Position numbers and translations under genes: made by a program. A stretch of 64,000 nt of DNA, taken from Bacteroidota bacterium (GTDB lineage Bacteria > Bacteroidota > Bacteroidia > Bacteroidales > ML635J-15). The stretch covers positions 15,025-79,024 of the forward strand of contig JAKQPY010000096.1 in the NCBI GenBank assembly GCA_029564465.1, in the 5' to 3' direction. The stretch's first letter is position 1. Every line of letters begins with the position of its first letter. Below the pieces are notes generated by a model. It was not told the DNA's origin and ran no database searches. It was given only the letters and a program-made list of their open reading frames with translations. Positions 22,727 to 39,366 of this stretch are shown here, in pieces.

Positions 22727-24836
22727 TTACAGATATATAGTTGCCTTACTGATTGGATTCCTTTTGTTACCATGGGTTTTGTCAGCACAAACCGATGCAC
22801 AGCAAATGAAACCCGGTCAGATAAAAAAATATGCAAAGCTGGCAGCCGAATCGGGCGATATATTTACAGCTATCGATTTTTATGAGATTTTTTTGAAGGA
22901 AAGGCCGGGTAATATTAAAGCGCTGCACGAATTGGGCAATTTATATTACCGTGAAAAGAACTATGTAAAAGCGGCCGATTGTCTGCGCAAGGCGTTTAAA
23001 GGCAACCGCGATAAATACATTTTGGATCAGTATTACTATGCCATGGCCCTTAAAACTATGGGAGAATATCTGGATGCTGAGCAACAATTCCAGATTTTTC
23101 AGCGATACCTTAAAAAAGACAAGCTGAAGGACACCTATGGTAAGATGGCTAAGATACATATCGAAAGTTTGAAATTAATACCGGAGCTTCAAAAACCAAC
23201 ACAGAATATTGTAATCACCCACCTCGACTCGGCTGTGAATAAACCCCATATCGAATTTTCGCCCATTCCTACCGAAGATGGAAAACTGATTTATGCTTCG
23301 TTGAAACAAGATAAGCTGGAATACTACGATCCGATTACCCAGAAACTACCTGTTCGTAAGTTTTATATGGCCTACGAAAAAAATGGGAAATGGGTAAACC
23401 TTGGCGAGTTCGATAAAACGATTAATGGCGAAAACCAGAATACCGGCAATGGAGCTTTCGCAGTAAACGGTAACAAGTTTTACTTTACCCGTTGCGAAAA
23501 ATCAGAACAGAATAAAGTAATCTGTAAAATTTTTTACAGTGTTAGCCTCCATAACGAATGGCAAGCGCCTATTGAATTGGGCGAGGAAATCAACATGCCC
23601 TTCTTTACATCGACAATGCCGGCTGTGGGTGTGTCGAAGCGTAATACCGATATTCTCTATTTTGTTTCCGACAGACCCGATGGGCGCGGTGGTCTCGACA
23701 TTTGGTTTACGGCGTACAACGACCGTAAGAACGAGTATGAAACCCCCAAAAACTGTGGTAAAAACATCAATACCCTGGGCAACGAGATTACACCTTATTA
23801 TAATATAGATACCAAAACACTGTACTTCAGTTCTGATTTGCATCCCGGACTGGGTGGTTACGATGTTTTCAAATCGTCGGGTGAAGGCAAGCAATGGACT
23901 GCAGCCGAGAACCTTGGTATTGGCATTAATTCCTCATTCGACGACTTATATTATACCCTAACTCCCAACCGACAGAAAGGATATTTTGTTTCGAACCGTA
24001 AAGGTACACAATCGATTCGTCACGAGAATTGCTGCGATGATATTTTCGAATTTGTGTATTCCGATTTCATTGTTATCGGGGTAACAGGTCAGGTATTCGG
24101 AATTACCGACAGCACATTCTTTAAAAGTATTGAGCACGATTATAAGGAGGATTTGCACCTCAATATCGAAGATGTTAGTCATAACAATGCCATCGAAGTA
24201 TTGTACAATTACCCTGTTTCGCTGTTTATGAAAGACAAAAACACCGGAAAAGACCTGTTTATTAAAACCGATAGCACCCGAAACGGCAATTACTTCTTCA
24301 ATCTGGAACAGGGAATTGATTATTACATTACAGTAAAAGACTTTAACCGGGTCGAAAAGCGGATCGATTTCACTACAAAGCCCATTACCAGTTCTGATAC
24401 CCTGGTACTCGATGCAATTATTGTGAATACCATTCCCAATCAGCCCTTTGTTGTAAACAACATTTATTACGAATTCGGACTGGCCCGATTAACCGATAAA
24501 GCCAAAACCACTATCGACAATACGATATACAGTCTGATGACAAAATATCCCCAGATTATTGTAGAAATCAGGTCGCATACCGACAGTGTTGCCAGCGACG
24601 AGTTTAATATGAAGCTTTCGCAGGACAGGGCGCAGAGCGTAGTGGATTATCTCATTGAGAAAGGAATTAGTCGGGACCGCCTGGTAGCCACAGGCTTTGG
24701 AGAGGCTTTCCCGATAGCCCCCAACACAAACCCTGATGGCACTGACAACCCTGACGGAAGGGCCAAAAACCGCAGAACCGAGTTCAGAATAATTGGTGCT
24801 ATCGAAGACTATTCCGATATTCTCTACGAGGATTAA
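22692..24836 (+). CDS. OmpA-family protein with N-terminal TPR and TolB-like beta-propeller repeats
   Basis: TPR region (ALHELGNLYYREKNYVKAADCL). Repeated 'NT.GNE..P....D..TLYF.S.R.GG.GG.DI' motifs. C-terminal OmpA domain (IEIRSHTDSVASDEFNMKLSQDRAQSV...NRRTEF). Non-ATG (TTG) start that overlaps the porP-like gene. Confidence 0.8.
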   Translation: MTRLHCPVTAINYRYIVALLIGFLLLPWVLSAQTDAQQMKPGQIKKYAKLAAESGDIFTAIDFYEIFLKERPGNIKALHELGNLYYREKNYVKAADCLRKAFKGNRDKYILDQYYYAMALKTMGEYLDAEQQFQIFQRYLKKDKLKDTYGKMAKIHIESLKLIPELQKPTQNIVITHLDSAVNKPHIEFSPIPTEDGKLIYASLKQDKLEYYDPITQKLPVRKFYMAYEKNGKWVNLGEFDKTINGENQNTGNGAFAVNGNKFYFTRCEKSEQNKVICKIFYSVSLHNEWQAPIELGEEINMPFFTSTMPAVGVSKRNTDILYFVSDRPDGRGGLDIWFTAYNDRKNEYETPKNCGKNINTLGNEITPYYNIDTKTLYFSSDLHPGLGGYDVFKSSGEGKQWTAAENLGIGINSSFDDLYYTLTPNRQKGYFVSNRKGTQSIRHENCCDDIFEFVYSDFIVIGVTGQVFGITDSTFFKSIEHDYKEDLHLNIEDVSHNNAIEVLYNYPVSLFMKDKNTGKDLFIKTDSTRNGNYFFNLEQGIDYYITVKDFNRVEKRIDFTTKPITSSDTLVLDAIIVNTIPNQPFVVNNIYYEFGLARLTDKAKTTIDNTIYSLMTKYPQIIVEIRSHTDSVASDEFNMKLSQDRAQSVVDYLIEKGISRDRLVATGFGEAFPIAPNTNPDGTDNPDGRAKNRRTEFRIIGAIEDYSDILYED

Positions 24837-25340
24837 TTACTCTATCTGCAGGCTTCGCAATACCATTTTCCTAGCATAATAAATCCGGCTTTTCACGGTG
24901 CCCATGGGTAATTGGTATCTTTCAGAAATTTCGCTGTATTTATAGCCTGAAATAAAATCGAAAAATGGCTCCCTGAATTTGCTGTCCAACCGGTTGATAC
25001 ATTGCACCACTTCCTTGTACAATAGCTGAGAATCGGGTGAAGGCTCGTAAGTGCAGGTATTGCTTACAATAGGCATCTTGTTGGAAACTGCCTCGGTAAG
25101 CACTTTTCGATATTGTACACTCCGACGGCGCTGGTTAATAAACTGGTGTTTCATAATCGTAAACAACCATGCCCGCAGACATGTGTCACTGGCAAGATTT
25201 CCTTTATAAGAAATAGCCTTGAGCATAGTGTCCTGGGTCAGGTCTTCGGCATCCTCCACATTTTCGGAAAGTGAAACAGCCCTGTCAATCAGCTGACCTC
25301 GTAAGTCAACAAGCTCGTTCTCGAATCCGGGAGTTCTCAT
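24837..25340 (-). CDS. ECF-type RNA polymerase sigma-70 family factor
   Basis: Region 2 (EDAEDLTQDTMLKA...WLFTIMKHQFINQRRR) and region 4 (YSEISERYQLPMGTVKSRIYYARK). The ATG at 25340 is preferred over 25397. No anti-sigma gene is adjacent. It is divergent from the hydrogenase cluster. Confidence 0.75.
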   Translation of the reverse strand: MRTPGFENELVDLRGQLIDRAVSLSENVEDAEDLTQDTMLKAISYKGNLASDTCLRAWLFTIMKHQFINQRRRSVQYRKVLTEAVSNKMPIVSNTCTYEPSPDSQLLYKEVVQCINRLDSKFREPFFDFISGYKYSEISERYQLPMGTVKSRIYYARKMVLRSLQIE

Positions 25341-25458
25341 GTGCTTACAATTTGTGGTTTCTATATCAAATATACAACGCACTGATTGCTTTCGCAAATA
25401 ATTTGTGTTTTAAAATATGCGTTGTTCACATTAAACTTATATTGTTATTGTTCTAACA

Positions 25459-25476
25459 TTGTTTTTTGTTTCACAA
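25459..25476 (+). promoter_or_regulatory. weak candidate Rex operator upstream of the hydrogenase cluster
   Basis: TTGTTTTTTGTTTCACAA compared with the Rex consensus TTGTGAA-N4-TTCACAA. The right half-site is perfect and the left half matches 4 of 7. It sits just upstream of the candidate -7 box. Confidence 0.2.
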
Positions 25477-25483
25477 ATATCAT

Positions 25484-25491
25484 TATCTTTG
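25484..25491 (+). promoter_or_regulatory. candidate -7 box (TAnnTTTG) for the hydrogenase cluster
   Basis: TATCTTTG lies 18 nt upstream of the ATG at 25509. A TTTG at 25465-25468 gives only a 15-nt spacer. Confidence 0.3.
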
Positions 25492-25508
25492 TAACTCAAT
25501 TATCAGTT

Positions 25509-25994
25509 ATGGGTTCCGCATTGGTGCAGGAAATAATTAGCGAAAAAAAAATCACCGACAAATCGGGACTGCTCATGCTGTTGCAGATATTGCAGGAACG
25601 GACAGGTGTGATTCAATATCATGATATTGTTGATATTTCGAAACAACTGGGCATAGCAGAAAGTAAAATATTCGGCATTGCCAGCTTTTACAATTACTTC
25701 CGATTTATCCCTAAAGGGAAATTTCACATCGAAATTTGTACGGGCACCTCTTGTTATCTTTGCGACTGCGAGAAGATGACAGCCGAACTTACACGGCTAA
25801 CCGGTCTCTCCAATGGAGAATTAAGTCGCGACGGACTAGTGTCGATAGAGCATACCGGATGTTTGGGGGGATGTTCGCAAGGTCCGGTTCTAAAAATCAA
25901 TGATAGTTTTTTTACACATGTTGATGTTGCGAAGCTCCGGAACCTTGTTTCTAAATTACAGTCGGGTGAGATGCCTGAAGAAATGAGCGTTTGA
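25509..25994 (+). CDS. NuoE/HydC-like thioredoxin-fold [2Fe-2S] subunit
   Basis: Cys pattern CTGTSC (Cx4C) ... CLGGC (Cx3C) with GPVLKIND, typical of NuoE/HndA. The ATG at 25509 was chosen. The ORF-track extension to 25386 is hydrophobic junk overlapping the divergent promoter. Confidence 0.85.
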   Translation: MGSALVQEIISEKKITDKSGLLMLLQILQERTGVIQYHDIVDISKQLGIAESKIFGIASFYNYFRFIPKGKFHIEICTGTSCYLCDCEKMTAELTRLTGLSNGELSRDGLVSIEHTGCLGGCSQGPVLKINDSFFTHVDVAKLRNLVSKLQSGEMPEEMSV

Positions 25995-25995
25995 A

Positions 25996-27858
25996 ATGAA
26001 TACACCGCTCGAAATAAACAAATCGAAAACAGCACCGTCACAGATATTTCTGCAAACGGGCACCTGTAGCATAGTTGCAGGTATAACCAAAACCAGGGAT
26101 GCATTTATTCAATACATCGAAAGTCATCAGATAGATGCCGACCTGATTGAGACCGGTTGTATGGGCATGTGTTCCAACGATCCGGTTGTCGATATTTTGA
26201 TTCCCGGAAGAAATAAAATCAGCTTTCGCAGGGTGATGCCATCGGATGTGGCTATTATATGCGACTGTATTTTCAATAATATTTTGCCGGAAAAAACCCA
26301 CATTCTGGGGCAGTACAAAAGCAACGACCGTTTTCCCTGGGAATTTGTTCCTTATATTGATGAACTCCCGTTTTTTGCGACACAAAAAAGAATACTTCTT
26401 TCCGGGATCGAAACAATCAGGCCCGATAGTGCCAGCGATTACGAAAGCCTTGGTGGTTTCACTGCCTTGCTCAAAGCCATCAGAACAATGACACCTGCAG
26501 CTGTCTGCAGCGAAATAGCCGAAAGTGGTCTGACCGGGCGCGGCGGCGGTGGATACAGCACTGGCAGTAAACTTCGGACGGTGTTGCAGCAGCATTCTTA
26601 CAAAAAATATTTGATATGCAATGCCGATGAAAGCGATCCGGGATCATTCTCGGGAAGATTACTCGTAGAAGCAAAACCTTTTTTACTCCTTGAGGGAATC
26701 ATCATTGCAGCCTATGCATCCGGGGCAAATCAGGCAATTATTTATATCCGCAACAAATACCGCTTATCTATTGATCGTTTGCAGCGTTGCATCCATCAGT
26801 TATATGAACTCAAGTGGCTGGGAGATGACATTTTAGACAGCGGAATAAACCTTCGGATCAGTATTTACGAAAGTCCGGGCGCCTTTGTTTGTGGCGAAGA
26901 AACAGCCCTGATTGAAAACCTTGAAGGGAACCGGGGGATGCCTCGTACCAAACCGCCTTATCCTGCCATCAGTGGCTTACATGGTATGCCTACCGTGGTA
27001 AACAATGTAGAGACACTGTGCAATATTCCTGCAATAATCAGCAATGGAGCCGCATGGTTTCGCAGCATTGGGAATAACAACACTACGGGAACCAAGTTAT
27101 TTTCTGTTTCAGGTAAAACCGAAATCGGGGGTGTAGTCGAGATCGAAATGGGCAGTACCATCAGACAGGTTATTGATGCATGTGGCGGACCTCAATCGCA
27201 TTCCGAAATAAAGGCAGTGCATCTGGGTGGACCGTCGGGAGGCTTGGTGCCTGTCGAAGACTTTGGGATTCCCCTAGACTACTATCATTTAGATAAACAA
27301 AAACTCTACCTGGGCTCGGGCAGCTTTGCCGTATTAGATCAGGAAAACTGTATTGTGAATACCTGCCGCTATTTTATGGAATTTATCGAGGGCGAAAGTT
27401 GTGGGAAATGTATTCCTTGCCGCGAAGGCTCACAGCGTATTACAGAAATCTTTAAAAGAATATCGAACAAACCCAACGATGCTGAGGAATTTGCCACACT
27501 ACTGCGTTTTAAGGGTGTGATGCAACTGGAACAGATGGCGGAAGTGATGCATGAAACATCATTGTGTGGTTTGGGTCAGCATGCGCCCAATGTGGTTACC
27601 ACTGCATTAAAACATTTCAGAGAAGAGTTTGAGGAGCATATTTTCGAGCGAAAATGCAGGGCAGGAGTATGTAAAAATCTTAAATCCTACTCGATAGACC
27701 ACACGGCATGCACCGGGTGTGGTATGTGTGCAAAACGCTGCCCTGCTGATGCAATTGCCGGTAGTTTGCGGCAAACACATTATATTATCAGCGAGCGCTG
27801 TATCGGATGCGGGATGTGTATGGAATCGTGTAAGTTTAACGCCGTTATTCTCAAATAA
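25996..27858 (+). CDS. NuoF/HydB-like NADH- and FMN-binding subunit with C-terminal 2x[4Fe-4S] ferredoxin domain
   Basis: GLTGRGGGGYSTGSK (FMN), CNADESDPGSF (NADH), ESCGKCIPCREG...LCGLGQ (N3-type 4Fe-4S), and C-terminal CTGCGMCAKRCP / CIGCGMCMESC. Confidence 0.9.
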   Translation: MNTPLEINKSKTAPSQIFLQTGTCSIVAGITKTRDAFIQYIESHQIDADLIETGCMGMCSNDPVVDILIPGRNKISFRRVMPSDVAIICDCIFNNILPEKTHILGQYKSNDRFPWEFVPYIDELPFFATQKRILLSGIETIRPDSASDYESLGGFTALLKAIRTMTPAAVCSEIAESGLTGRGGGGYSTGSKLRTVLQQHSYKKYLICNADESDPGSFSGRLLVEAKPFLLLEGIIIAAYASGANQAIIYIRNKYRLSIDRLQRCIHQLYELKWLGDDILDSGINLRISIYESPGAFVCGEETALIENLEGNRGMPRTKPPYPAISGLHGMPTVVNNVETLCNIPAIISNGAAWFRSIGNNNTTGTKLFSVSGKTEIGGVVEIEMGSTIRQVIDACGGPQSHSEIKAVHLGGPSGGLVPVEDFGIPLDYYHLDKQKLYLGSGSFAVLDQENCIVNTCRYFMEFIEGESCGKCIPCREGSQRITEIFKRISNKPNDAEEFATLLRFKGVMQLEQMAEVMHETSLCGLGQHAPNVVTTALKHFREEFEEHIFERKCRAGVCKNLKSYSIDHTACTGCGMCAKRCPADAIAGSLRQTHYIISERCIGCGMCMESCKFNAVILK

Positions 27859-27859
27859 G

Positions 27860-29515
27860 ATGCAAGTCGAAATTACAGTAAACCGTACTAAAATTCAGGC
27901 ACGCAAAGGCGAAACAATCCTGACGGCATTACAGCGTAACGGAATAAAAATACCAACCCTTTGCAATCTTCCTGAACTTACTCCCACAGGTGCCTGCCGG
28001 CTATGTGTGGTAGAGGATGAAGATACCCGGCATTTGATTCCAGCCTGCTCGACTCCGGTACAAACCGGAATGAAAATATTAACCCATTCACCCAAAGTAA
28101 TCAGAAGTCGCCAGACAATTATCGATTTACTCCTGACGAATCACCCGGACGATTGCCTTTACTGTGATAAAAACCGTCGTTGTGAGTTGCAGTCACTTTC
28201 CGAAGAACTTTATATAAGAGAAAGACTTTTTACCGGTGTTAAAAAGAAGGGTAAAACCGACCGTTCGAGTCAGGGCCTGGTATTCGACATGTCGAAGTGT
28301 ATTTTATGCGGACGCTGTGTAAAGGTATGCTCCGAAATTATAGGCGTTGCTGCCATAGACCATGTGTACCGTGGCAAGCGTTCGGTGGTAGATACCGTAT
28401 TGGGGAAAGGACTATATTATTCTTCCTGCATTCAATGCGGGCAATGCATCAACATTTGCCCGACAGGTGCCCTGCGCGAAAAATCGGCTATAGAACAAAT
28501 TGCTGCCAAAATTGGGCAGGAGTCTGTGAAAATATCGGTAATACTTTCGGCATCATCCGTGGCTTCGATAGCAGCCGTATTTGGAATCCGTAAGTTTGAA
28601 GAAATGACTGAAATGCTGGTGGCTGCTTTGAAAGACACCGGATTTTCTACAATAGTGACCGATAGCTTCGCATCCGATCTGTACTTTGCTGATGCCACAT
28701 CCCTGATTTGTGAGCGAATTGTGCAACCCGATTTTAAAATGGTAATTTCCGATTGCCCTGCTGCCATTCAATGGGTGAAGCAAAAACATCCTGAATTTGC
28801 CCATTTTTTGGTGCCTTTAAGATCACCACAGCAGATAACCGGTCGCATGTTAAAGCGGGAGACCAATGGTAGTAACAATATAGTGGTAGCCGTAATGCCA
28901 TGTATAGCACGTAAAACCGAAGCACTTCAACCCAATAACCTGACCCGCGGTTTGCCTGATATTGATTTTGTGGTTACCACACACGAATTACTTCATTTAC
29001 TCCGTACCCGCGGTGTGACCATGCCATTCCCCAAAAGATGCACCGTCGATAAACCATATAACATATACAGTTCTTGTTCTGTGTTGCACGAATATAATGG
29101 TGGTTTCGCTGAGTCTCTGGTCAGGAATCTGTTAAGTACGGAGGGGAAAAATTCTTTCGATAGTAAATATACCGAACTAAGGGTAAACAAACCTGTGAAA
29201 ACATTCGAAACCAGTATTTCGGGTCGCAACCTGAAGCTTGTTTCTCTTAATGGCATGCAGGCAATCAATGAGTATTTTTTGAAATATGTAACCGACAACA
29301 GTGTACATATAATCGAAATTTCGTCGTGCGTTGGAGGCTGTATCAACGGCAGCAGCCAGCTCGATAGTGAAGCAAGTATTTCGGGCAAGGTGTTACTCGA
29401 TTTCGAAAGTTCAGGTTTACTGCGTAATTCGGTGCAGAATGCCATAGTGAAAGGTATGAGTTCCGACAATGTGGTTAAGCCGATTACACGCTACGAATCA
29501 AATTCTGAATTGTGA
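27860..29515 (+). CDS. HydA-like protein: NuoG-type Fe-S N-terminus + [FeFe]-hydrogenase H-cluster domain with non-canonical motifs
   Basis: N-terminal plant-type 2Fe-2S (CNLPELTPTGACRLC), His-ligated cluster HPDDCLYCDKNRRCELQ, and 2x CxxCxxCxxxCP. H-domain motifs are SDCPAAIQW (28748-), MPCIARKTE (28895-28921) and EISSCVGGCINGSSQ (29315-29359). The ATG at 27860 is 1 nt after the nuoF-like stop. Confidence 0.8.
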   Translation: MQVEITVNRTKIQARKGETILTALQRNGIKIPTLCNLPELTPTGACRLCVVEDEDTRHLIPACSTPVQTGMKILTHSPKVIRSRQTIIDLLLTNHPDDCLYCDKNRRCELQSLSEELYIRERLFTGVKKKGKTDRSSQGLVFDMSKCILCGRCVKVCSEIIGVAAIDHVYRGKRSVVDTVLGKGLYYSSCIQCGQCINICPTGALREKSAIEQIAAKIGQESVKISVILSASSVASIAAVFGIRKFEEMTEMLVAALKDTGFSTIVTDSFASDLYFADATSLICERIVQPDFKMVISDCPAAIQWVKQKHPEFAHFLVPLRSPQQITGRMLKRETNGSNNIVVAVMPCIARKTEALQPNNLTRGLPDIDFVVTTHELLHLLRTRGVTMPFPKRCTVDKPYNIYSSCSVLHEYNGGFAESLVRNLLSTEGKNSFDSKYTELRVNKPVKTFETSISGRNLKLVSLNGMQAINEYFLKYVTDNSVHIIEISSCVGGCINGSSQLDSEASISGKVLLDFESSGLLRNSVQNAIVKGMSSDNVVKPITRYESNSEL

Positions 29516-31500
29516 TGGATCCAAAAAAAATAATATATACGGTCGAAGACCGATGTGAGGTTTGCTACAGTTGTGTGCGTGTTTGTCCAGCCAAGGCAAT
29601 CAGTATTAAAAACGGTCAGGCTCAAGTGATACACGAACGCTGTATTGCCTGTGGAAATTGTGTGAAAGTGTGTACCCGGGAAGCCAAGAGATTCAGGGAT
29701 TCAGCTGATGAACTGATTGAGATGCTCGGTGCGGGAGAATCAATAATTGCCTGTATCGCTCCCAGTTTCCCAGCCGAATTCAGAGAAGTTGCCGATTACA
29801 GATATGTTGTAGGTATGTTCCGTTCACTGGGATTCAGCAAGGTTGTTGAAGTTGCTTTTGGTGCCGATCTGGTAGCCAGGGAATATATTAAACTGCTTAA
29901 TGACCCCGACGGTAAAAAATTCATTTCTTCCGATTGTCCGGCAGTAGTAAACTATATTACCAAATATCACCCGCATCTTACCGAGAATCTGGCACCCATA
30001 GTATCGCCGGTGATGGCACTTGCCCGTGTTTTAAAAAAGGAATATGGTACAAAATATAAACTTGCTTTAATCAGTCCCTGTATTGCAAAGAAATCGGAAT
30101 CCAACGAAATTGATGTTGTTCTCACATTTAAAGAGATTCGCGAAGTATTCCGGATGAAAGGTATTGAGTACCAGCACTGTGAGCCTACGGAGTTTGATCC
30201 GCCGTTAAGTGGCCGTGGTGCCATTTTCCCTGTTTCGAGGGGCATCATTCAAACCATCAATGTTTCCGAAGATTATGTCGATGGGAATGTGGTGGTTGCC
30301 GATGGAAGGTTAAGTTTTAAAGAAGCCATCAATGAGTTCGACAATGGCCTGATTGCCGACCAGCATCTCGAGCTGCTTTGCTGCGAAGGTTGCATCATGG
30401 GGCCCGGAATGTCATCGCAGGGAAAGCCTTATCAAAGCCGGGCTTACGTAACCCGCTATGTAAAAGGCAAATTAAAAAACATCGACCGTAAGTATTGGAA
30501 AAGTCAGGTAAATAAGTACAAAACGCTCAATCTTCAACGCGAGTTTACTCCCGACGACTGCCGTGTAGTGTATCCTTCGCCCGATGAAATTATGAGCATT
30601 TGGAACTCGATGGGCAAAACCGAAGCCATCGACCGTCTCGATTGTCAGGCCTGTGGTTACGAATCGTGCAAAGAGCATGCCGTAGCCGTATTGCGAGGAC
30701 TGGCCGAAATCGACATGTGTTTACCTTATATGATAAAAAAACTTCACCAATCGATTGGTGAACTGAATTTAAAAAATCAAACCCTGGCTTCGGTGCAACA
30801 GGCATTAAAGCAAAGCGAAAAACTGGCCCATCTGGGGCAGTTGTCGGCAGGTATTGCCCATGAACTTAACAACCCGCTGGGTGTGGTAATTATGTACAGT
30901 AACATTCTTATTGACGAAGCAAAACCCGATGACCCACAGGTCGAAGACCTTAAAATGATTGCCGATCAGGCCTTACGCTGTAAAAACATTGTGGGCGGAT
31001 TATTGAATTTTGCACGTAAGAACAAATTGAAAGTCGATAATATCAATATAAGTTCATTAATCAATCGTTCACTGAAATCATTGGTAATACCGGATAATAT
31101 TAAGGTACATACTGCTTTTCAGCTCAAAAACGATCAGGCGGGTCTCGATGAAGAACAAATGATACAGGCATTAACAAATATTATTAAGAACGCTATTGAA
31201 GCCATGCCCGATGGGGGAAGCCTTAATGTCACGGTAAGCGACCGAAATGATATCATTAAAATTGATATTGCAGATACCGGAACAGGCATTGAACAGGAGC
31301 ACATGGATAAAATATTTACGCCGTTTTTTACCACCAAAGGACTTGGAAAAGGAACCGGACTGGGTATGCCTACCACTTACGGTATCATTAAAATGCATAA
31401 TGGGAAAATACACATCGAAACCAATGCAGATGCTGAAAGAGGTAATACCGGAACCACTTTTAGTATCGAAATTCCACGCTATAATAACCAAGTAAGTTGA
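29515..31500 (+). CDS. sensory-type [FeFe]-hydrogenase domain fused to a histidine kinase (HydS-like::HisKA-HATPase)
   Basis: 2x[4Fe-4S] (CEVCYSCVRVCP, CIACGNCVKVCT). H-domain motifs are SSDCPAVVNY, SPCIAKKSE and LLCCEGCIMGPG. Cx2Cx4C...C motif CQACGYESC...MC (30643-30720). Coiled coil, H-box AHELNNPL (His codon at 30859), N/G1/F/G2 boxes. Start is ATG 29515 (TGATG overlap) or GTG 29512. Confidence 0.8.
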   Translation: MDPKKIIYTVEDRCEVCYSCVRVCPAKAISIKNGQAQVIHERCIACGNCVKVCTREAKRFRDSADELIEMLGAGESIIACIAPSFPAEFREVADYRYVVGMFRSLGFSKVVEVAFGADLVAREYIKLLNDPDGKKFISSDCPAVVNYITKYHPHLTENLAPIVSPVMALARVLKKEYGTKYKLALISPCIAKKSESNEIDVVLTFKEIREVFRMKGIEYQHCEPTEFDPPLSGRGAIFPVSRGIIQTINVSEDYVDGNVVVADGRLSFKEAINEFDNGLIADQHLELLCCEGCIMGPGMSSQGKPYQSRAYVTRYVKGKLKNIDRKYWKSQVNKYKTLNLQREFTPDDCRVVYPSPDEIMSIWNSMGKTEAIDRLDCQACGYESCKEHAVAVLRGLAEIDMCLPYMIKKLHQSIGELNLKNQTLASVQQALKQSEKLAHLGQLSAGIAHELNNPLGVVIMYSNILIDEAKPDDPQVEDLKMIADQALRCKNIVGGLLNFARKNKLKVDNINISSLINRSLKSLVIPDNIKVHTAFQLKNDQAGLDEEQMIQALTNIIKNAIEAMPDGGSLNVTVSDRNDIIKIDIADTGTGIEQEHMDKIFTPFFTTKGLGKGTGLGMPTTYGIIKMHNGKIHIETNADAERGNTGTTFSIEIPRYNNQVS

Positions 31501-31501
31501 T

Positions 31502-31885
31502 ATGAAAACCCACACGATTCTCATTGCCGACGATGACTACGATTACCTTTATCAGATGTGTTATCACATAGAAGATGCAGGTTTTACTGTAATTAAGGCC
31601 AATAGTCAGGCAGAAGCAGAAGCCGTAATTGGTGAGCTAAAACCCGACCTTGCCCTTTTCGACTTAATGATGGAAAACCATGATAGCGGTTTTGTACTTG
31701 CCTATAAGATGAAAAAAACATATCCCGATGTGCCGGTAATTATTGCTACGGCTGTTGCCGGTGAGACCGGACTGAATTTCGGGAACGGAAATCAGGGAGG
31801 CTGGGTTAAAGCCGACAAATACCTTGAAAAAGGAACCAGTCCACAGGTAATCATCGAAATTATTAAACAAATGCTCGGAATATAA
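31502..31885 (+). CDS. single-domain response regulator (REC only)
   Basis: 127 aa. ILIADDD ... DLALFDLMM (acceptor Asp) ... PVIIATA ... K. No output domain. Confidence 0.85.
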   Translation: MKTHTILIADDDYDYLYQMCYHIEDAGFTVIKANSQAEAEAVIGELKPDLALFDLMMENHDSGFVLAYKMKKTYPDVPVIIATAVAGETGLNFGNGNQGGWVKADKYLEKGTSPQVIIEIIKQMLGI

Positions 31886-31886
31886 T

Positions 31887-33005
31887 ATGGAAAACCTGAA
31901 AATTCTTGTTGTTGACGACGAACCCGGCATTCGCATGGGTGTACACAGGGTACTCGATAAATTTGTGGTTGACTATCCCTTTATGGACGACTCCATAGGT
32001 TTTGATGTTGACGATGCCTCAACCGGTGAAGAAGCGCTCGAAAAATTGAACGCTGTTACTTACGACATAGTCTATCTCGACAATAAATTGCCGGGAATTC
32101 AGGGAATCGAAGTGCTCGAACATCTCAACAAGGCAAATCCTGCCACCAAGGTTATCATGATTACATCGTATGCCTCACTTGAGCTGGCTGTGCAGGCTAC
32201 CAAAATGGGAGCCCATGATTTTGTTCCAAAACCCTTCACACCACAGGATCTGCGCTCTTCTGCCGAGAATGTGACCAAACAGATATTCCTGAAAAGAATG
32301 ATGCAGAAAATGTATAAGGAAGGGAAACAAATCCGTTTCCAATTCTTGTCATTGTTGTCGCACGAATTGAAAGCCCCTTTGAATGCCATTGAGGGATATC
32401 TGAAAATAATGATTGAACAGAAAGAAGGTAAAGACATAGCCTCTTACGACAAAATGATCAGGCGTTCGCTTGACCGTGTTAAAGATATGCGCTCGCTTAT
32501 TTTTGATCTGCTCGACCTTACAAAGATTGAATCAGGTGAACTGGCAAAGAAAACCGAAGATCTCAATCTTTGTGAAGTATTGAAAAACTCGCTTTCGTCG
32601 ATTCAACCCATGGCAATACAAAAGGACATTACACTGGGTTGCAACCTGAGCTACCCGGTTATTTACAAAGCCGACCCGCGTGATATGGAAATCGTCTTCA
32701 ACAACCTGTTGTCGAATGCAGTAAAATACAATCGCCAGAATGGCTCAATTTCGTGCGCCGTATCCGACACAAGTACGCAAATTGAAGTCAGTATTTCCGA
32801 CACGGGTATTGGTATGACACCCGAAGAAATCGACAGAGTTTTCGGGGAATTTGTCAGAATTAAAAACGAAAACACACGCAATATTCCGGGAAGTGGCCTG
32901 GGATTGGCTATTGTTAAAAAAATTCTTGACAGTTATAACGCCTCCATCAGGGTGCAAAGCACTCCGGGCGAAGGCTCTGTATTTACAGTTACATTTAACA
33001 AATAA
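31887..33005 (+). CDS. hybrid REC-histidine kinase (N-terminal receiver, C-terminal HisKA + HATPase_c)
   Basis: ILVVDDEPGIR ... VYLDNKLPG ... FVPKPF (REC). H-box SHELKAPLN, N-box LLSNAVKYN, G-boxes DTGIGM / GSGLGL. Confidence 0.85.
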   Translation: MENLKILVVDDEPGIRMGVHRVLDKFVVDYPFMDDSIGFDVDDASTGEEALEKLNAVTYDIVYLDNKLPGIQGIEVLEHLNKANPATKVIMITSYASLELAVQATKMGAHDFVPKPFTPQDLRSSAENVTKQIFLKRMMQKMYKEGKQIRFQFLSLLSHELKAPLNAIEGYLKIMIEQKEGKDIASYDKMIRRSLDRVKDMRSLIFDLLDLTKIESGELAKKTEDLNLCEVLKNSLSSIQPMAIQKDITLGCNLSYPVIYKADPRDMEIVFNNLLSNAVKYNRQNGSISCAVSDTSTQIEVSISDTGIGMTPEEIDRVFGEFVRIKNENTRNIPGSGLGLAIVKKILDSYNASIRVQSTPGEGSVFTVTFNK

Positions 33006-33010
33006 TAACT

Positions 33011-33631
33011 ATGTTACCTGAAAAAACCACCGAACGTTTGAGCCAGTATCGCCGTCTGCTTCAGAACCTGTCGGACGAGGGGAAGGAATATATTTTTTCG
33101 CACGAAATTGCATTGATGTTGCACCTGACTCCCGTTCAGGTCCGTCGCGACATTATGCTTATCGGATATAACGGTTCACAACGAAAAGGCTATATCATTC
33201 ACGATCTGATTCAAAAACTCAGTCAGGTACTTGACTCGGAACAGTGTCAAAATGCTGCCGTTTTTGGGGTGGGTAATCTGGGCAAGGCGATTACCAGCTA
33301 TTTCAATGGCAAAGGTCATAATATTAATATTGTGGCTGCTTTCGACAGTGACCCGCAAAAAACCGACAGAATTATCTCGGGCGTTTGGTGTTACGATATT
33401 AAGCAAATAAAAGAGATTGTTAGCGAGAATAATATTTCGCTGGCCATTCTTACTCTGCCACCCCAATATGCCCAGGACATTACCGATAAGCTGGTTTATG
33501 CGGGAATTCGCGGAATACTCAATTTTACCAGTGTTCCACTAAGGGTGTCGCCCGATGTATATGTCGAAAATTACGACATGGTTACATCGCTCGAAAAACT
33601 GGCATACTATGTTAAAGAAATAAATCGTTAA
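33011..33631 (+). CDS. rex: redox-sensing transcriptional repressor Rex
   Basis: 206 aa. N-terminal winged helix (RLSQYRRLL...VQVRRDI..IGY) and a Rossmann fold (VFGVGNLGKAI...AAFDSDP...ILNFT), characteristic of Rex. Confidence 0.85.
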   Translation: MLPEKTTERLSQYRRLLQNLSDEGKEYIFSHEIALMLHLTPVQVRRDIMLIGYNGSQRKGYIIHDLIQKLSQVLDSEQCQNAAVFGVGNLGKAITSYFNGKGHNINIVAAFDSDPQKTDRIISGVWCYDIKQIKEIVSENNISLAILTLPPQYAQDITDKLVYAGIRGILNFTSVPLRVSPDVYVENYDMVTSLEKLAYYVKEINR

Positions 33632-33639
33632 GATATAGC

Positions 33640-34539
33640 ATGAAAGTACATTATAACTTCGATGATTTTGGAACAATCAAAAATCCAGTCGTTACCACGG
33701 GTTCTTTTGATGGCGTTCATACCGGGCACCGCGTGATAATTCAGCGCATTAATTTTTTGGCAAAAGCCATCGATGGCGAATCTGTTCTCATTACATTTTA
33801 CCCGCATCCACGTAAAATATTGTTTCCGAACGAGACTCAGGGCTTGTTCATGATTAACACACCGGACGAAAAAGAATACTTATTGTCGAATACAGGTCTA
33901 GATCACTTGTTTATTATCAACTTTACCATTGAGTTTTCGAAAACCCCATCCGAAGTTTTTGTCAAGGATATATTACTCGCAAAACTGGGTGCAAAAATTA
34001 TCGTGGTTGGGTTTAATCACCATTTCGGACATAATCGTCAGGGCGATTACCAGTACTTGTATCAACTAAGCAAGGTGGCAAACTTCAGGGTTGAAGAAAT
34101 TCCGCAACAGGATATCGAAAACGAAGCTGTAAGTTCAACCCGTATCCGTAAAGCCATACTCGAAGGGAAAATTGGCAGGGCCAACGCCTATCTGAATCAT
34201 CCGTTTTTCTTCATTACGCAACACCTGAAAGCGAGGAAAGCAGTGTTCGAAAATTTTTTACAATATACTGTTACCGATTTATTGCCGGAAAAAATTCTTC
34301 CTCCCTCTGGTAGGTATGCGGGTAAACTATTAAATGTCAATGGAATAACATATATTTTGTGTGATATTTTTGCTAACAGGTTATACTTTTACCTGAATGG
34401 TGATTTTGCTGATTCCGACATGAATAAGGGCATTATAGAACTGCATATGCAAATAAGAACATTTACTGATGAAGAAGATTTAAACATTTACGATAGCTTT
34501 ATGCCGGATGTTGTGTTTTTATCGGAATTGATTTATTAA
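33640..34539 (+). CDS. ribF: RibF-like FAD synthetase (FMN adenylyltransferase domain intact; riboflavin-kinase domain apparently degenerate)
   Basis: N-terminal motifs GSFDGVHTGH, TFYPHPR, VVGFNHHFG and SSTRIRK are present. In the C-terminal domain the expected G(R)xxGFPTAN reads KARKAVFENFLQ. Confidence 0.7.
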   Translation: MKVHYNFDDFGTIKNPVVTTGSFDGVHTGHRVIIQRINFLAKAIDGESVLITFYPHPRKILFPNETQGLFMINTPDEKEYLLSNTGLDHLFIINFTIEFSKTPSEVFVKDILLAKLGAKIIVVGFNHHFGHNRQGDYQYLYQLSKVANFRVEEIPQQDIENEAVSSTRIRKAILEGKIGRANAYLNHPFFFITQHLKARKAVFENFLQYTVTDLLPEKILPPSGRYAGKLLNVNGITYILCDIFANRLYFYLNGDFADSDMNKGIIELHMQIRTFTDEEDLNIYDSFMPDVVFLSELIY

Positions 34540-34570
34540 TATTGAGGTCTAATTTAAAAAAAAGCGAAGT

Positions 34571-35884
34571 ATGAAAGTTGTTATGATAGGTACCGGTTAT
34601 GTGGGTTTGGTTTCGGGAACCTGCTTTGCCGAGATGGGTGTACATACTGTTTGTGTTGACATTGATACAGTGAAAATCGAGAACCTGAAAAAAGGCATTA
34701 TCCCCATTTGGGAGCCCGGTCTCGAAGATATGTTAAAACGTAATTTTGAGAGTGGCAGACTGAGCTTCTCGACAAGTATTGCCGAAAGCATCAGCGGGGC
34801 TGACGCCTGTTTCATTGCTGTGGGAACTCCTCCTGACGAAGATGGCAGCGCTGATCTTCAATACGTTCTGGCTGTCGCCCGCGAAATTGGGAAAAACATT
34901 TCCGACTATCTGGTGGTAGTAACCAAAAGTACAGTTCCTATCGGAACATCCGAAAAAGTAAGAACCGCTGTTCAGGAGGAGATAAGCCTGCGGGGTTTAA
35001 GCATTAGTTTCGATGTGGCCAGTAATCCTGAATTTCTGAAGGAAGGCGATGCCATCGATGATTGTATGCACCCCGACAGAATTGTTATCGGTACCGATTC
35101 CGAAAGGGCACAGGAATTGCTGAACCGTCTTTACAAACCTTTTGTTTTGAATGGCCACCCCATCATTTTCATGGATATTCCCTCGGCTGAGATAACCAAA
35201 TATACGGCCAATGCCATGTTGGCTACGAAAATCAGTTTCATGAATGATATTGCCAACTTCTGTGAACTGGTGGGTGCTGATATTAACGCTGTGAGAAAAG
35301 GAATCGGCAGCGACAGACGAATAGGACAGTACTTTATTTATGCCGGAACGGGTTATGGGGGTTCCTGTTTCCCAAAAGATGTAAAAGCAATCATTAAAAC
35401 AGCTGATAGCAAAGGTTATTCGCTCGAAATTCTCAAAGCGGTGGAGGATGTTAACGACCGGCAGAAATCGAGATTGTACCAAAAAGCCATGCAATACTTT
35501 GGGAATAATCTGCAGGGAAAGAAAATTGCGCTCTGGGGACTTTCGTTCAAACCCAACACCGACGATATGCGTGAAGCTCCGGCGCTGGTTCTGATACAAC
35601 TTCTGGTGAAAGCCGGATGCAAGGTAGTCGCTTACGACCCCGTAGCCATCGAAGAAACCAAACGTAGAATTGGCAACATTATAGAGTATGTCGAAAATCC
35701 ATACGATGCAATTGTTGATGCTGATGCTCTTTTCTTAGTTACCGAATGGACGGAATTCAGGGTGCTGAACTACGAAAAAATGAAAACAATGCGTCATAAA
35801 ATTATTTTTGACGGCAGAAACATATACGACCCCAAAGAATTGCATGCCCATGGGTTTGAATACTTTGGAATCGGACGAAAATAA
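34571..35884 (+). CDS. ugd: UDP-glucose 6-dehydrogenase
   Basis: MIGTGYVGLVSGTCFAEMG (NAD fold), catalytic GGSCFPKDV, and the C-terminal UDP-binding domain. Confidence 0.9.
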   Translation: MKVVMIGTGYVGLVSGTCFAEMGVHTVCVDIDTVKIENLKKGIIPIWEPGLEDMLKRNFESGRLSFSTSIAESISGADACFIAVGTPPDEDGSADLQYVLAVAREIGKNISDYLVVVTKSTVPIGTSEKVRTAVQEEISLRGLSISFDVASNPEFLKEGDAIDDCMHPDRIVIGTDSERAQELLNRLYKPFVLNGHPIIFMDIPSAEITKYTANAMLATKISFMNDIANFCELVGADINAVRKGIGSDRRIGQYFIYAGTGYGGSCFPKDVKAIIKTADSKGYSLEILKAVEDVNDRQKSRLYQKAMQYFGNNLQGKKIALWGLSFKPNTDDMREAPALVLIQLLVKAGCKVVAYDPVAIEETKRRIGNIIEYVENPYDAIVDADALFLVTEWTEFRVLNYEKMKTMRHKIIFDGRNIYDPKELHAHGFEYFGIGRK

Positions 35885-35893
35885 CATCCTTAC

Positions 35894-36145
35894 ATGGAAA
35901 AAACAGTAGAAATAACCATTTGCCTTGGCAGCTCATGCTTTAGTCGCGGTAACAAAGAAATGGTGAGTGTGATTCAGGACTATCTCGAGGAACACAAACT
36001 CAAGGAACAGGTCAAATTTAAAGGTGGCCACTGCTTTGGTAATTGCAGCAATGGACCGGTAATAAAAATAAATGGTCAGCCCTATTATGGGGTTTCCAAA
36101 ATCGGTATTACCGATATTCTGAACCAGGCGTTTAACCTCGAATAA
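35894..36145 (+). CDS. small thioredoxin-like [2Fe-2S] ferredoxin (NuoE-fold, HfsA-like position)
   Basis: 83 aa. CLGSSC (Cx4C) ... CFGNC (Cx3C) ... GPVIKING. It lies 9 bp after ugd and 11 bp before the H-domain-PAS gene. Confidence 0.7.
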   Translation: MEKTVEITICLGSSCFSRGNKEMVSVIQDYLEEHKLKEQVKFKGGHCFGNCSNGPVIKINGQPYYGVSKIGITDILNQAFNLE

Positions 36146-36156
36146 ACCAACGGCAA

Positions 36157-37989
36157 ATGGAATTGATACAATTCGACAAATCGAAATGCACCCTCTGCTA
36201 TGCTTGCGTGAGAGCCTGTCCTGTGCGGGCCATTCATGTAAACAACGAAAATAACGGGGTTTCGATTATTCACGACCGGTGCATTGGTTGCGGCAATTGC
36301 TACACCAATTGTGCCTCGAAGGCAATTTTGTATTACGGTAGTATAAACGAAACACAAGCTTTACTAGCAAAATACACCTGCATGGCCATTGTTGATCCTT
36401 GTATTGCCGCCGAATTTCCTGATGTCACCGACTACCGGAATTTTGTGGGGATGATTAAAGCCATTGGGTTCCGCTATGTTTGTGAAATTTCGTATGGCGC
36501 AGGATTGGTTGCCGATGAGTATAAAACCCATTTCGAGAATTTTCGCGGGAAATATCATATCACCTCGGCATGCACACCTGTGGTTGAATATGTAAGAAAA
36601 TATCAGCCCGGGTTAATAGACAGCCTGATTCCTGTATTAACCCCCATGCTCGCAACTGCTAAAGCATGTCGTGCCATTTATGGCAACGATATTAGAATAA
36701 TTGCTATCACTCCCTGCATCGGGCAAAAACTGGAAGCGCACGAGTTCAATGGTTTAGTACATTCTGTGCTTACTTTTGAGGAATTACGTGAGTTGTTTTC
36801 ACAAAAAGATATTGCCGAAAACTCGGTTGAATTTTCGGAGTTCGACCCGCCCTATGGAGGAAAAGGTTCACTTTTTCCTATCAGTACCGGTCTGCTGGAG
36901 GCAGGCAATATTGCCACCGAGGCGGGAGTCAATCGTATTATAACCCGTGACGGTCCCGATGAGTTTCGTGACAATATTGACGACTTCTCGCGTATAGCAG
37001 CCGTAAAGCACCATTTGAATGCTTACTTCTGCAAAGGCTGTTGTACCGGTCCATGTACTTCGGCCAAACGATCGTATCTGCAAAACCACAGCCTGGTAGT
37101 CGATTTTACAATGAAGCGGGTGGCATTTTGTAACGAAAACCAACCCGATACACTGGCGAATATTCAGCTGAACCGTAGCTTTACTGCTGACGACCAGCGC
37201 TTGCCAATGCCCGATCCGGCCCGGGTTCAGGAGATACTCAAAATGTTGGGGCGTGATATGAACGACAACCACGGTTGCCAGTCGTGCGGATATAAAAGCT
37301 GTACAGAGTTTGCTGTTCATGTGGCTAAAGGCCTTGCCAAGCCTGAACTCTGCGTTACCTATACCCTCCGCAACAGCCAGGAGTTCATAAAACAGCTTAC
37401 CATCACCAATAAAAAACTTGCCGAAACCCAAAAAGCGCTCGAAATTTCGGAACGCAAACTCAGGCAGGATCATAGTGTGGTAAAAGAAACCATGAACTTA
37501 CTGGAAGCCATTATGCAAAAACTGCCTTCTGGGGTTGTGCTGGCCGACAAAAACCTGAAAATCATTCAGTCGAACGAAAAATTCATTCAGATTATTGGCC
37601 GCGAAGCCGAAGAAATCAACGAGATTGTACCCGGGCTTACAGGTGCCGACCTAAAAACGATATTACCTCAGTCGGTATATACCCTTTTTGGTTATGTGCT
37701 GGGCAACAATCAGCCGGTCGAAAACAAAGATATCAGCTACGATGATAAACTCCTTAATGTATCGGTGTTTCCGATAAAAAAAGGTGAAATTGCCGGAGCA
37801 ATATTCCGCGACCTGTATCAGCCCGAGGTTCGCCGCGAAGAAGTGATTAACCGGGTAAACGAAGTCATTGAGAAAAACCTGCAGATGGTTCAGCAAATTG
37901 GCTTCCTGCTTGGAGAAGGTGCTTCCGAAACAGAACGCATGCTCAACAGTATTATAGAATCGTATCAAAAAAGCAACCGGCAGCCATAA
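36157..37989 (+). CDS. sensory [FeFe]-hydrogenase-like protein with C-terminal PAS domain (HydS/HfsB type)
   Basis: 2x[4Fe-4S] (CTLCYACVRACP, CIGCGNCYTNC). H-domain motifs are TSACTP (36562-36579), TPCIGQKLE (36709-36735) and FCKGCCTGPC (37030-37056). CQSCGYKSC...LC (37276-37353), coiled coil, then PAS (LPSGVVLADKNLKIIQSNEKF...). Confidence 0.8.
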   Translation: MELIQFDKSKCTLCYACVRACPVRAIHVNNENNGVSIIHDRCIGCGNCYTNCASKAILYYGSINETQALLAKYTCMAIVDPCIAAEFPDVTDYRNFVGMIKAIGFRYVCEISYGAGLVADEYKTHFENFRGKYHITSACTPVVEYVRKYQPGLIDSLIPVLTPMLATAKACRAIYGNDIRIIAITPCIGQKLEAHEFNGLVHSVLTFEELRELFSQKDIAENSVEFSEFDPPYGGKGSLFPISTGLLEAGNIATEAGVNRIITRDGPDEFRDNIDDFSRIAAVKHHLNAYFCKGCCTGPCTSAKRSYLQNHSLVVDFTMKRVAFCNENQPDTLANIQLNRSFTADDQRLPMPDPARVQEILKMLGRDMNDNHGCQSCGYKSCTEFAVHVAKGLAKPELCVTYTLRNSQEFIKQLTITNKKLAETQKALEISERKLRQDHSVVKETMNLLEAIMQKLPSGVVLADKNLKIIQSNEKFIQIIGREAEEINEIVPGLTGADLKTILPQSVYTLFGYVLGNNQPVENKDISYDDKLLNVSVFPIKKGEIAGAIFRDLYQPEVRREEVINRVNEVIEKNLQMVQQIGFLLGEGASETERMLNSIIESYQKSNRQP

Positions 37990-37992
37990 ACC

Positions 37993-39177
37993 ATGCACAA
38001 CGACTTTTTCATAGAAATTGATGCCCGACAGATAAACCATCAGGGTCAAAAAATCTGCGGAGATGTGTTCATGAAGCGTCGTATCAAAGAGGAGAACCGT
38101 TTTATTGTGGTGTTGAGCGATGGCATGGGACATGGTGTAAAAGCCAATATCCTTGCAAGCCTTACGGCAACCATGGCCATGAATTTTACCATTGAGCACC
38201 GCGATCCGGGACGAATTGCCGAAATCATCATGAAAACCCTGCCGGTGTGTAAGGAACGGAAAATTGCCTATGCCACCTTTACCATAATTGATGTTACTAC
38301 GCACGATAAGGTTCAGATTATTGAGTACGACAACCCGCATGTTATGGCTTTTCGTGACGGAAAGCCCATGCAGCTCGACTGGCACGAAATTGAATTATCG
38401 AAATACGCCCAACACGACAAAAAGCTGTTCACTACAGGTTTTTATCCTCACCTGGGCGACAGGCTTATTCTGGTTTCCGATGGGGTAGCCCAGTCGGGCA
38501 TGGGTTCCGAAACATTCCCATTTGGCTGGGGTGTCGATAAAATTACGAACTATGTAGCTGGGCTGATTGAGGCCGATCACAATATTTCGGCAGCCCGTTT
38601 GTCCGAAAAAATTGTCAACCGCTCAGTACTGAACGATGGCTATAAATCGAAAGACGATACCAGCTGTGCTTCGCTCTACTTCAGAGAACCCCGGAAATTG
38701 CTGCTGGTGACCGGTCCACCCTTCGAAGCCTCCTATGATGCGCGTTTGGCGACCATAATCAGAGAACACAGCGGAAAAAAAGTGGTTTGCGGGGGTACCA
38801 CCACCGATATCGTTTCGCGTGAACTGGGGGTGGAGGTTACCGACAGCCTCGACTTTTACGACAAGGAGCTTCCTCCGGTAGCTTATATGCCGGGTATCGA
38901 CCTTGTTACCGAAGGTATACTCACCCTGAATAAGGTAAACCGCCTGTTACGTGATTTCGACAGCGACTACCTGACGGGCAAAGGTCCTGCCGACCAGATT
39001 GTAAAAATGTTTCACGAAAGCGACCGTATCGATTTCGTGGTGGGTACCAAGGTTAACGAAGCCCATCAGGATCCAAATGTTCCCGTGGACCTCGAAATAC
39101 GGCGTACCATCATAAACCGTATCGCACGTTTACTCGACGAAAAATTTCTGAAAGAAGTAAGCATCTCTTATTTGTAA
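37993..39177 (+). CDS. PP2C/SpoIIE-family serine phosphatase with extra C-terminal domain
   Basis: GDVF...VVLSDGMGHGVKA...LILVSDGV...DDTS metal-binding pattern of SpoIIE/PP2C in the first roughly 225 aa. The remaining roughly 170 aa contain no motif I recognise. Confidence 0.8.
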   Translation: MHNDFFIEIDARQINHQGQKICGDVFMKRRIKEENRFIVVLSDGMGHGVKANILASLTATMAMNFTIEHRDPGRIAEIIMKTLPVCKERKIAYATFTIIDVTTHDKVQIIEYDNPHVMAFRDGKPMQLDWHEIELSKYAQHDKKLFTTGFYPHLGDRLILVSDGVAQSGMGSETFPFGWGVDKITNYVAGLIEADHNISAARLSEKIVNRSVLNDGYKSKDDTSCASLYFREPRKLLLVTGPPFEASYDARLATIIREHSGKKVVCGGTTTDIVSRELGVEVTDSLDFYDKELPPVAYMPGIDLVTEGILTLNKVNRLLRDFDSDYLTGKGPADQIVKMFHESDRIDFVVGTKVNEAHQDPNVPVDLEIRRTIINRIARLLDEKFLKEVSISYL

Positions 39178-39256
39178 GTAGTTTTGCTTTTTTGCTGAAG
39201 ATTTACCAACCGGGAATACCAAAGCGTATTCTATTTTGAAAGTCATTCACGAAATA

Positions 39257-39308
39257 CCCCGACTCCGCTGCGATAACCTGTAAAAGTGGTCGCCGGGCGG
39301 AGGCGGGG
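39257..39308. other. GC-rich long hairpin between convergent genes
   Basis: CCCCGACTCCGC (39257-39268) pairs with GCGGAGGCGGGG (39297-39308) with 1 mismatch. The intervening 28 nt can also pair (GCGA...TCGC). No T-run follows. Confidence 0.5.
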
Positions 39309-39366
39309 TGTCCAAACAATATTCAATCAGAATTTATTTTGGCAAGGTGCAACCACACCTGTCCAA

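Follow-up and report, generated by a model that had tools for sequence, protein, structure and literature searches.

A putative sensory [FeFe]-hydrogenase fused to a histidine kinase in a Bacteroidales hydrogenase gene cluster

Here, we describe hydS-HK, a gene in a 64,000-nucleotide stretch of DNA (referred to as the window) from a Bacteroidota bacterium of the order Bacteroidales (GTDB ML635J-15; GenBank assembly GCA_029564465.1, contig JAKQPY010000096.1, positions 15,025 to 79,024). The gene occupies positions 29515 to 31500 of the window (stop codon included) on the + strand, which also carries the flanking genes from nuoF to rex and the second sensor module described below. Its open reading frame starts more likely with the ATG at 29515 than with the GTG at 29512 and encodes a 661-amino-acid, kinase-fused, putative sensory [FeFe]-hydrogenase of group C, which probably serves as an H2 sensor for the neighbouring hydrogenase genes.

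The domain architecture was determined with Pfam. Two Fer4 matches at residues 9 to 58 (29539 to 29688; Fer4/Fer4_10) mark an N-terminal 2x[4Fe-4S] ferredoxin-like domain and are followed by the H-domain core at residues 77 to 298 (29743 to 30408; Fe_hyd_lg_C, E = 5.7e-45) and by an accessory-cluster domain at residues 376 to 405 (FeS, PF04060, E = 2.1e-8). The last of these holds the four-Cys motif CQACGYESCKEHAVAVLRGLAEIDMC (residues 377 to 402; 30643 to 30720), a Cx2Cx4Cx16C motif formed by C377, C380, C385, and C402. A predicted, heptad-patterned signalling helix (residues 403 to 448; 30721 to 30858) connects the last cluster Cys to DHp helix 1, and the kinase half consists of HisKA/DHp (residues 441 to 503; 30835 to 31023; E = 4.2e-13), with an AHELNNPL H-box and phospho-acceptor His449 (30859 to 30861), and HATPase_c (residues 546 to 656; 31150 to 31482; E = 2.7e-22), with N, G1, F, and G2 boxes. 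The same architecture was found in 120 full-length homologues. A first-pass annotation of the window had described this domain order and placed the four-Cys motif; all of its sequence statements were correct, and the motif coordinates were exact.

That annotation had also described the two halves as joined with no PAS domain between them. The Pfam scan of hydS-HK gave no PAS or GAF family at E ≤ 0.01, and PF04060 ends at residue 405 and HisKA starts at 441, which leaves an interval of only 35 residues, all of them helical in an AlphaFold2 monomer model (32-homologue alignment; mean predicted local distance difference test score, 73). Helices were assigned to residues 403 to 425, 430 to 468, and 474 to 501 of the model (DSSP), and the stretch from the cluster motif to the H-box contained no strand. 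Scan, model, and the fixed linker length (see below) rule out a cryptic PAS or GAF domain in this interval.

Cys402 and His449 are exactly 47 residues apart, a distance kept in all 200 close homologues (120 database clusters and 80 genomic loci; 53 to 77% identity). In the model, the helix begins one residue past the last cluster Cys. Averaged linker hydrophobicity gave a/d-like positions at 1, 5, 8, 12, 15, 22, 25, 29, and 36 and a strongest period of 3.5 residues, with an invariant Asn (N421) at a core-like position. Among distant relatives (one representative per 50%-identity cluster), 37 of 46 direct fusions were in heptad register, with linkers of 33 (n = 5), 40 (n = 6), 47 (n = 20), 54 (n = 4), or 68 (n = 2) residues. 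When linker-length changes were reconstructed by Fitch parsimony on a FastTree topology of the sensor module, 11 of 19 were multiples of 7, against 2.7 expected (binomial p = 1.2e-5). Such heptad-stepped lengths are what a continuous coiled coil of fixed register would predict.

The H-domain was aligned to TmHydA and CpI by phmmer against solved structures. H-cluster ligands C141, C189, C290, and C293 align to CpI C300, C355, C499, and C503; K192 corresponds to K358 (the CN-binding Lys), K193 to K359, and E195 to E361. Pocket residues P83 (CpI P231), S164-P165 (S323-P324), and F238 (F417) are also kept. The H-cluster Cys, K192/K193, E195, and these three pocket positions were invariant over 32 homologues (55 to 77% identity), and the eight Cys of the N-terminal 2x[4Fe-4S] domain were invariant in the homologue alignment. 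At the C-terminal accessory cluster, Cx2Cx4Cx16C spacing was identical in 120/120 close homologues, and its four Cys were invariant across 112 distant relatives. The genome encodes the maturases HydE, HydF, and HydG, each above its curated cut-off. Because the pocket is invariant and all three maturases are encoded, the module is very probably able to hold a complete H-cluster. Published data on TmHydS and TamHydS support the view that the H-cluster of groups C and D is sensor-like and of low turnover (PMC8163306, PMC10407848).

The proton relay differs from that of CpI. The best CpI match of hydS-HK was 6GLZ, the C299D variant, because hydS-HK reads S-S-D-C-P (L1 motif, residues 138 to 142; 29926 to 29940) where CpI reads T-S-C-C-P, so that Asp140 stands in for the relay Cys299. 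Further differences from CpI are S319 to Ala, R286 to Leu, M353 to Ser, M497 to Leu, and a four-residue deletion around E279. SSDCP or TSDCP was present in 78 of 81 hydS-HK orthologues; more distant kinase-fused representatives carry T, N, A, S, P, or F at the C299 position instead of Asp. In groups C and D, this position is "mostly" Ala, as in A131 of TmHydS and A137 of TamHydS (PMC10407848).

Invariant residues of the kinase half comprise A448-H449-E450, N555, N559, D587, G589, G591, F604, and G613-G617, and the model helices at 430 to 468 and 474 to 501 would form the DHp hairpin (monomer model only). The closest solved or curated kinase relatives are ZraS, KinB, and AtoS. No NCBIfam model matched the fusion protein at its cut-off, so public annotation is generic. 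Two kinase-fused proteins of other organisms (P0141 and P0149) have the standard 47-residue linker, and their phospho-acceptor His is replaced by Cys or Phe (…AMVCKLNNPLS and …ATAFKLNNPLS) and are probably pseudokinases.

By these features, hydS-HK can be assigned to an already catalogued kind, the kinase-fused group C (HydS-type) putative sensory [FeFe]-hydrogenases. It combines the Fer4 domain, the four H-cluster Cys with the CN-binding Lys, and the C-terminal Cx2Cx4Cx16C motif with an unconserved Cys299 and group A proton path, although Asp, and not the customary Ala, takes the place of that Cys, and in sequence it is closer to PAS-type group C than to group A or D. The strict M2f definition (PAS after the C-terminal cluster) does not cover it; HisKA and HATPase_c in the same chain and a gene position directly after hydA/bfuA are those of the kinase-fused C1/"BfuT" sub-type V, and the H-box His with N, G1, F, and G2 boxes places the kinase in the HisKA class. 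Membership of group D (M2e) was ruled out by the 259 further residues that form the kinase and by sequence identity: hydS-HK is 33% identical over 500 amino acids to the PAS-type paralogue in the window, 25% to the M2e-type protein of its own genome, and 23 to 25% to HydA.

Relatives of this kind have been reported several times. HydDB lists [FeFe] class C1 as "Histidine kinase-linked (putative)" (PMC5037454), and lineage V of the Elusimicrobia contains a kinase-fused type related to those of Ignavibacterium and Caldithrix, with a trimeric group A enzyme and Rex as neighbours (10.1101/765248). Petrimonas mucosa (Bacteroidales) is reported to have a histidine kinase-linked hydrogenase near its hnd genes (PMC7768429), and a study of Hydrogenedentota named the kinase-bearing form BfuT, within sub-type V bfu clusters, with two bfuT genes per cluster in the Bacteroidota Perlabentimonas, Tenuifilum thalassicum, and Williamwhitmania (PMC11406978). 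A T. thalassicum protein (P0043) matches hydS-HK over its full length at 57% identity. Published placement of kinase-bearing relatives in C1 or C3 is inconsistent. The novelty ascribed to the gene in the first-pass annotation was thus overstated, since both the PAS-less kinase fusion and a two-sensor Bacteroidota cluster were already in print (PMC5037454, 10.1101/765248, PMC11406978).

A second sensor module lies downstream (35894 to 39177) and comprises a Trx-like [2Fe-2S] protein, the paralogue HydS-PAS (36157 to 37989), and a PP2C/SpoIIE phosphatase (37993 to 39177), identified by Pfam, synteny, and profile homology to hydS-HK. HydS-PAS has the same Cx2Cx4Cx16C motif, then a helix, and then weak PAS matches at residues 447 to 553, as had been read from its sequence at the outset. 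The kinase-family profile was compared by hhalign with a profile of 30 PAS-type orthologues. The two aligned (probability, 100%; E = 7e-141) ungapped from residue 7 to about 437, a span that takes in the cluster motif and the first 35 helix residues after the last Cys; N421, L424, Q428, A430-L431-K432, and S434-E435 are common to both families. They diverge where one enters DHp and the other enters PAS. The earlier suggestion that the C-terminal cluster and helix form a conserved transmission module is supported by this alignment, by the fixed 47 residues, and by the heptad steps.

On the sensor-module tree, hydS-HK nests among PAS-, kinase-, and sigma54-fused relatives, and hydS-HK and HydS-PAS fall in separate, well-supported (starred) deep clades. 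Together with the 33% identity, these separate clades indicate that the two paralogues are old; a recent duplication was ruled out by the same clades. The first-pass annotation had taken the pair as alternative outputs of one H2 or redox input. The alternative outputs stood in outline, with both genes together in about 50 of 80 loci, but a shared input was not shown: the clades are deep, and the C299 position is Asp in one protein and Ala in the other.

A Pfam scan of distant relatives covered 71 of 112 representatives. The HydS module was fused to a sigma-54 AAA+ activator with HTH_8 in 13 of the 71 (P0185, P0198, P0202, P0203, P0207, P0211, P0214, P0224 to P0228, and P0235); these proteins look like one-component, H2-responsive enhancer-binding proteins. 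Other relatives fuse the module to a PAS-kinase. Relatives with different outputs are intermingled across the tree, a pattern that points to domains having been exchanged at the helix more than once. A single origin of the direct kinase fusion was unsupported, since starred branches force at least seven label changes (FastTree topology, indicative only).

Upstream of hydS-HK lie genes for a NuoF/HydB-like flavoprotein subunit (25996 to 27858; Complex1_51K, NADH_4Fe-4S; syntenic in about 75/80 loci) and a HydA-like, M3-type subunit (27860 to 29515; Pfam and residue table) with a non-canonical H-cluster pocket (C299D, K358R, F417H, M497S). Downstream are a 127-amino-acid single-domain receiver (REC; Response_reg; 31502 to 31885), which follows hydS-HK in nearly all loci, a syntenic REC-HisKA-HATPase_c hybrid kinase (31887 to 33005), and a Rex-type NADH/NAD+-sensing repressor (33011 to 33631; Put_DNA-bind_N, CoA_binding), syntenic in most loci. 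The two REC domains that had been predicted downstream are thus real by Pfam. A ribF-like gene (33640 to 34539) has a conserved place in the hydrogenase cluster and is not an accident of the window genome.

An alignment-based genome scan found a relative in at least 592 species genomes. Synteny was examined in the best 80 loci (L001 to L080), which bear Bacteroidota names except for three bins of metagenome-assembled genomes labelled otherwise (L045, L049, and L064). The order nuoE-nuoF-hydA-hydS_HK-REC-REC_HK was kept in essentially all loci long enough to show it; hydS-HK lies directly downstream of hydA in the window and in about 75 of the 80, and rex and then the ribF-like gene follow in most. 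The Trx-like/HydS-PAS/PP2C module is divergent and upstream of nuoE in about 50 of the 80. In the window and in L001 to L004, it lies downstream of rex/ribF/ugd on the same strand.

At 29512 to 29518 (GTGATGG), the stop codon TGA of the hydA-like gene (29513 to 29515) and the ATG of hydS-HK (29515 to 29517) share one base. The first-pass annotation took this TGATG overlap as a sign of translational coupling. The overlap is real here, but it recurs in only about 11 of 77 orthologous junctions; some of the others have gaps of 100 to 600 nucleotides, and the widest spans 625. Coupling was therefore rejected as a family trait, and the overlap is a local feature. A sigma-70 promoter and terminator scan of 25000 to 39600, with a model that lacks Bacteroidota promoters, gave nothing useful above shuffled sequence.

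The HydA-like orthologues in the same operon position of L001 to L080 all keep the four cluster Cys. About 30 of them are canonical throughout; C299A/M353T/K358M/F417A occurs in about 20, and position 299 is D, S, E, N, or T in others. The genome of the window contains seven H-domain matches, including two canonical HydA genes. One match, on another contig (C59, 30992 to 32359, − strand), is an M2e/group D-like sensor-type protein of 455 amino acids with Phe at the C299 position; it adjoins a canonical hydABC, and genes for a small anti-sigma-like ATPase, a DRTGG-like protein, and a PHP protein lie nearby (24582 to 33112). One genome thus carries kinase-fused, PAS-fused, and output-less sensor forms. 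A further contig (C256, 208 to 1519) repeats C59 30992 to 32768 with a few substitutions. The repeated part comprises a gene for a 146-amino-acid ATPase-like protein and the beginning of the M2e-type gene, and it stems either from a variant strain or from duplication in the assembly.

We consider it likely, from architecture, conservation, and linker geometry, that hydS-HK encodes a soluble, H2-responsive sensor histidine kinase with a HydS-type (group C) input and a register-locked helix. Reaction of H2 at the H-cluster would alter the redox or protonation state of that cluster and, with it, the conformation of the H-domain and the C-terminal cluster domain. Because Cys402 lies directly at the start of a register-fixed helix, we propose that this change is passed on mechanically: the putative coiled coil, with Cys402 at its N-terminus, would run continuously and in fixed register into DHp helix 1 and His449, and helix rotation or a piston movement in the homodimer would switch the balance of kinase and phosphatase activities. 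Phosphate would then pass to the adjacent single-domain receiver, the REC-kinase hybrid, or both, and hydrogen and redox metabolism may be adjusted together with Rex and the second sensor (HydS-PAS and its PP2C phosphatase). Architecture, residue conservation, linker geometry, synteny, and the presence of the maturases are shown by the data; we infer H2 as the signal, which way the kinase is switched, where the phosphate goes, and which genes are regulated.

Several observations weigh against this interpretation. Model confidence fell below 50 over residues 413 to 453, so the coiled coil is deduced from sequence, although a monomer model can be expected to do poorly on a stretch that presumably pairs with its partner chain in a dimer. 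Nine of the 46 distant direct fusions were off register, with linkers of 24, 27, 34, 38, 44, 48, 49 (twice), and 58 residues; in five of the nine, the H-box is of another type, suggesting that the kinase was exchanged and not that the linker gained or lost residues. The cluster has no DNA-binding output apart from Rex, and the literature searched yielded no biochemical study of any kinase-fused member. H2 does not reduce the C-terminal cluster of TamHydS, which may have a structural role, and loss of this cluster hardly alters catalysis, which runs counter to a simple relay by cluster reduction (PMC13104023). Those data, from a group D enzyme, would fit a mechanical rather than a redox relay. 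Finally, Cys-to-Asp at the C299 position, in CpI and HydA1, keeps 30 to 80% of H2 release (the Cys-to-Ala variants are dead; PMC6226526), so that members of the Asp clade may be capable of H2 turnover and not of H2 binding alone.

The main rival, which we regard as rather unlikely, is a sensor of electron flux or redox state to which H2 matters only indirectly. The module would dock on, or exchange electrons with, the NuoE-NuoF-HydA-like complex or ferredoxin and report its reduction state through the [4Fe-4S] chain. This would suit a gene directly after hydA (here with overlapping stop codon), a cluster that includes the NADH sensor Rex, a partner HydA that is often non-canonical, the treatment of a homologue as the "T subunit" of BfuABC clusters (PMC11406978), and the unresponsiveness of the TamHydS cluster to H2. 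The hydA overlap is not conserved, however, and a di-iron site of no importance would leave the invariance of the full H-cluster pocket, beyond the FeS ligands, difficult to account for. To our knowledge, TmHydS has not been reported within a HydABC complex, which also speaks against this rival. A related, equally doubtful idea is that the Bacteroidota clade is mechanistically distinct: Asp140 would maintain proton exchange with the di-iron site and hence a slow turnover of H2, and the kinase would read catalytic flux, or the redox poise of the neighbouring non-canonical NuoEF-HydA complex, via the register-locked helix with the last cluster Cys as its cap. The cluster domain would then act as a mechanical hub and not as a redox relay, which would explain why H2 does not reduce the TamHydS cluster.

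It is quite improbable that hydS-HK is a working hydrogenase subunit, with a catalytically competent Asp140 clade and a kinase that reports turnover or is a secondary add-on. The H2 release retained by Asp variants would favour competence, as would Asp in 78 of 81 orthologues and the kept equivalents of K358 and F417, two residues missing from many partner HydA orthologues. Against this, the group A proton path is otherwise not kept (S319 and R286 replaced, and the deletion around E279), M353 and M497 are replaced as in slow sensory enzymes (PMC8163306), and HydA1 C169D takes up H2 at only 1 to 2% of the wild-type level (PMC6226526). A degenerate H-domain without di-iron subcluster, serving an oxygen- or iron-sulfur-status sensor kinase like NreB, would accord with the changed C299 position and pocket Met residues and with the decay seen in P0141 and P0149, but it is highly improbable given the 32-sequence invariance of the H-cluster Cys and pocket, the three maturases, and the functional H-clusters bound by TmHydS and TamHydS despite comparable substitutions (PMC8163306, PMC10407848).

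A sensory hydrogenase fused to its kinase can be set beside several known systems. From the C1/Elusimicrobia/BfuT type, hydS-HK differs in nothing essential: both have the same domain order with kinase instead of PAS and the same place after hydA/bfuA of a trimeric NuoEF-type cluster with Rex nearby, and only the PAS/PP2C module of the window lies downstream and co-directional instead of divergent upstream. TmHydS shares with it the two N-terminal [4Fe-4S] clusters, a replaced relay Cys and pocket Met, the C-terminal Cx2Cx4Cx16C motif, and proposed H2 sensing, but has PAS, no kinase, and Ala where the hydS-HK clade has Asp; its closer analogue in the window is HydS-PAS. TamHydS likewise lacks PAS and has the C-terminal four-Cys cluster, Ser for M353, and Leu for M497, but ends after the cluster domain, with a kinase-like ATPase gene adjacent but separate, and has Ala at 299. 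In Cupriavidus necator, the slow hydrogenase HoxBC (HydDB [NiFe] group 2b) is an H2 sensor that controls the histidine kinase HoxJ and hydrogenase expression. Its metal site is unrelated, HoxBC and HoxJ are separate proteins, and the HoxJ input is PAS-like. In FixL and the engineered YF1 (PDB 4GCZ, which matches hydS-HK residues 421 to 654), an unbroken coiled coil joins the input to DHp, and it is in heptad steps that its length matters; in hydS-HK, the input is an iron-sulfur enzyme module of roughly 400 residues and not PAS, and heptad dependence is deduced from natural length variation and not from engineering.

New here are the fixed 47-residue linker, the heptad-stepped lengths, the helix signature common to both paralogues, and the clade-specific Asp; the fixed linker, heptad steps, and conserved Asp do not appear in the C1, Elusimicrobia, and BfuT papers. 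These details refine the picture and suggest experiments, and the category of protein is unchanged. The natural linker series (33, 40, 47, 54, and 68 residues) and the Asp/Ala relay difference are ready-made experiments, and, with the kinase in the same chain, one protein suffices for a direct readout, namely its autophosphorylation with H2 compared with inert gas; a 2026 study of TamHydS closes by asking for interaction partners (PMC13104023). For the family, hydS-HK is one more member of a large, already catalogued group: real, intact, well conserved, and of a design common in Bacteroidota. For the anaerobic Bacteroidales of sediments, digesters, and guts, the locus would be a conserved unit that controls the balance of hydrogen and NADH.

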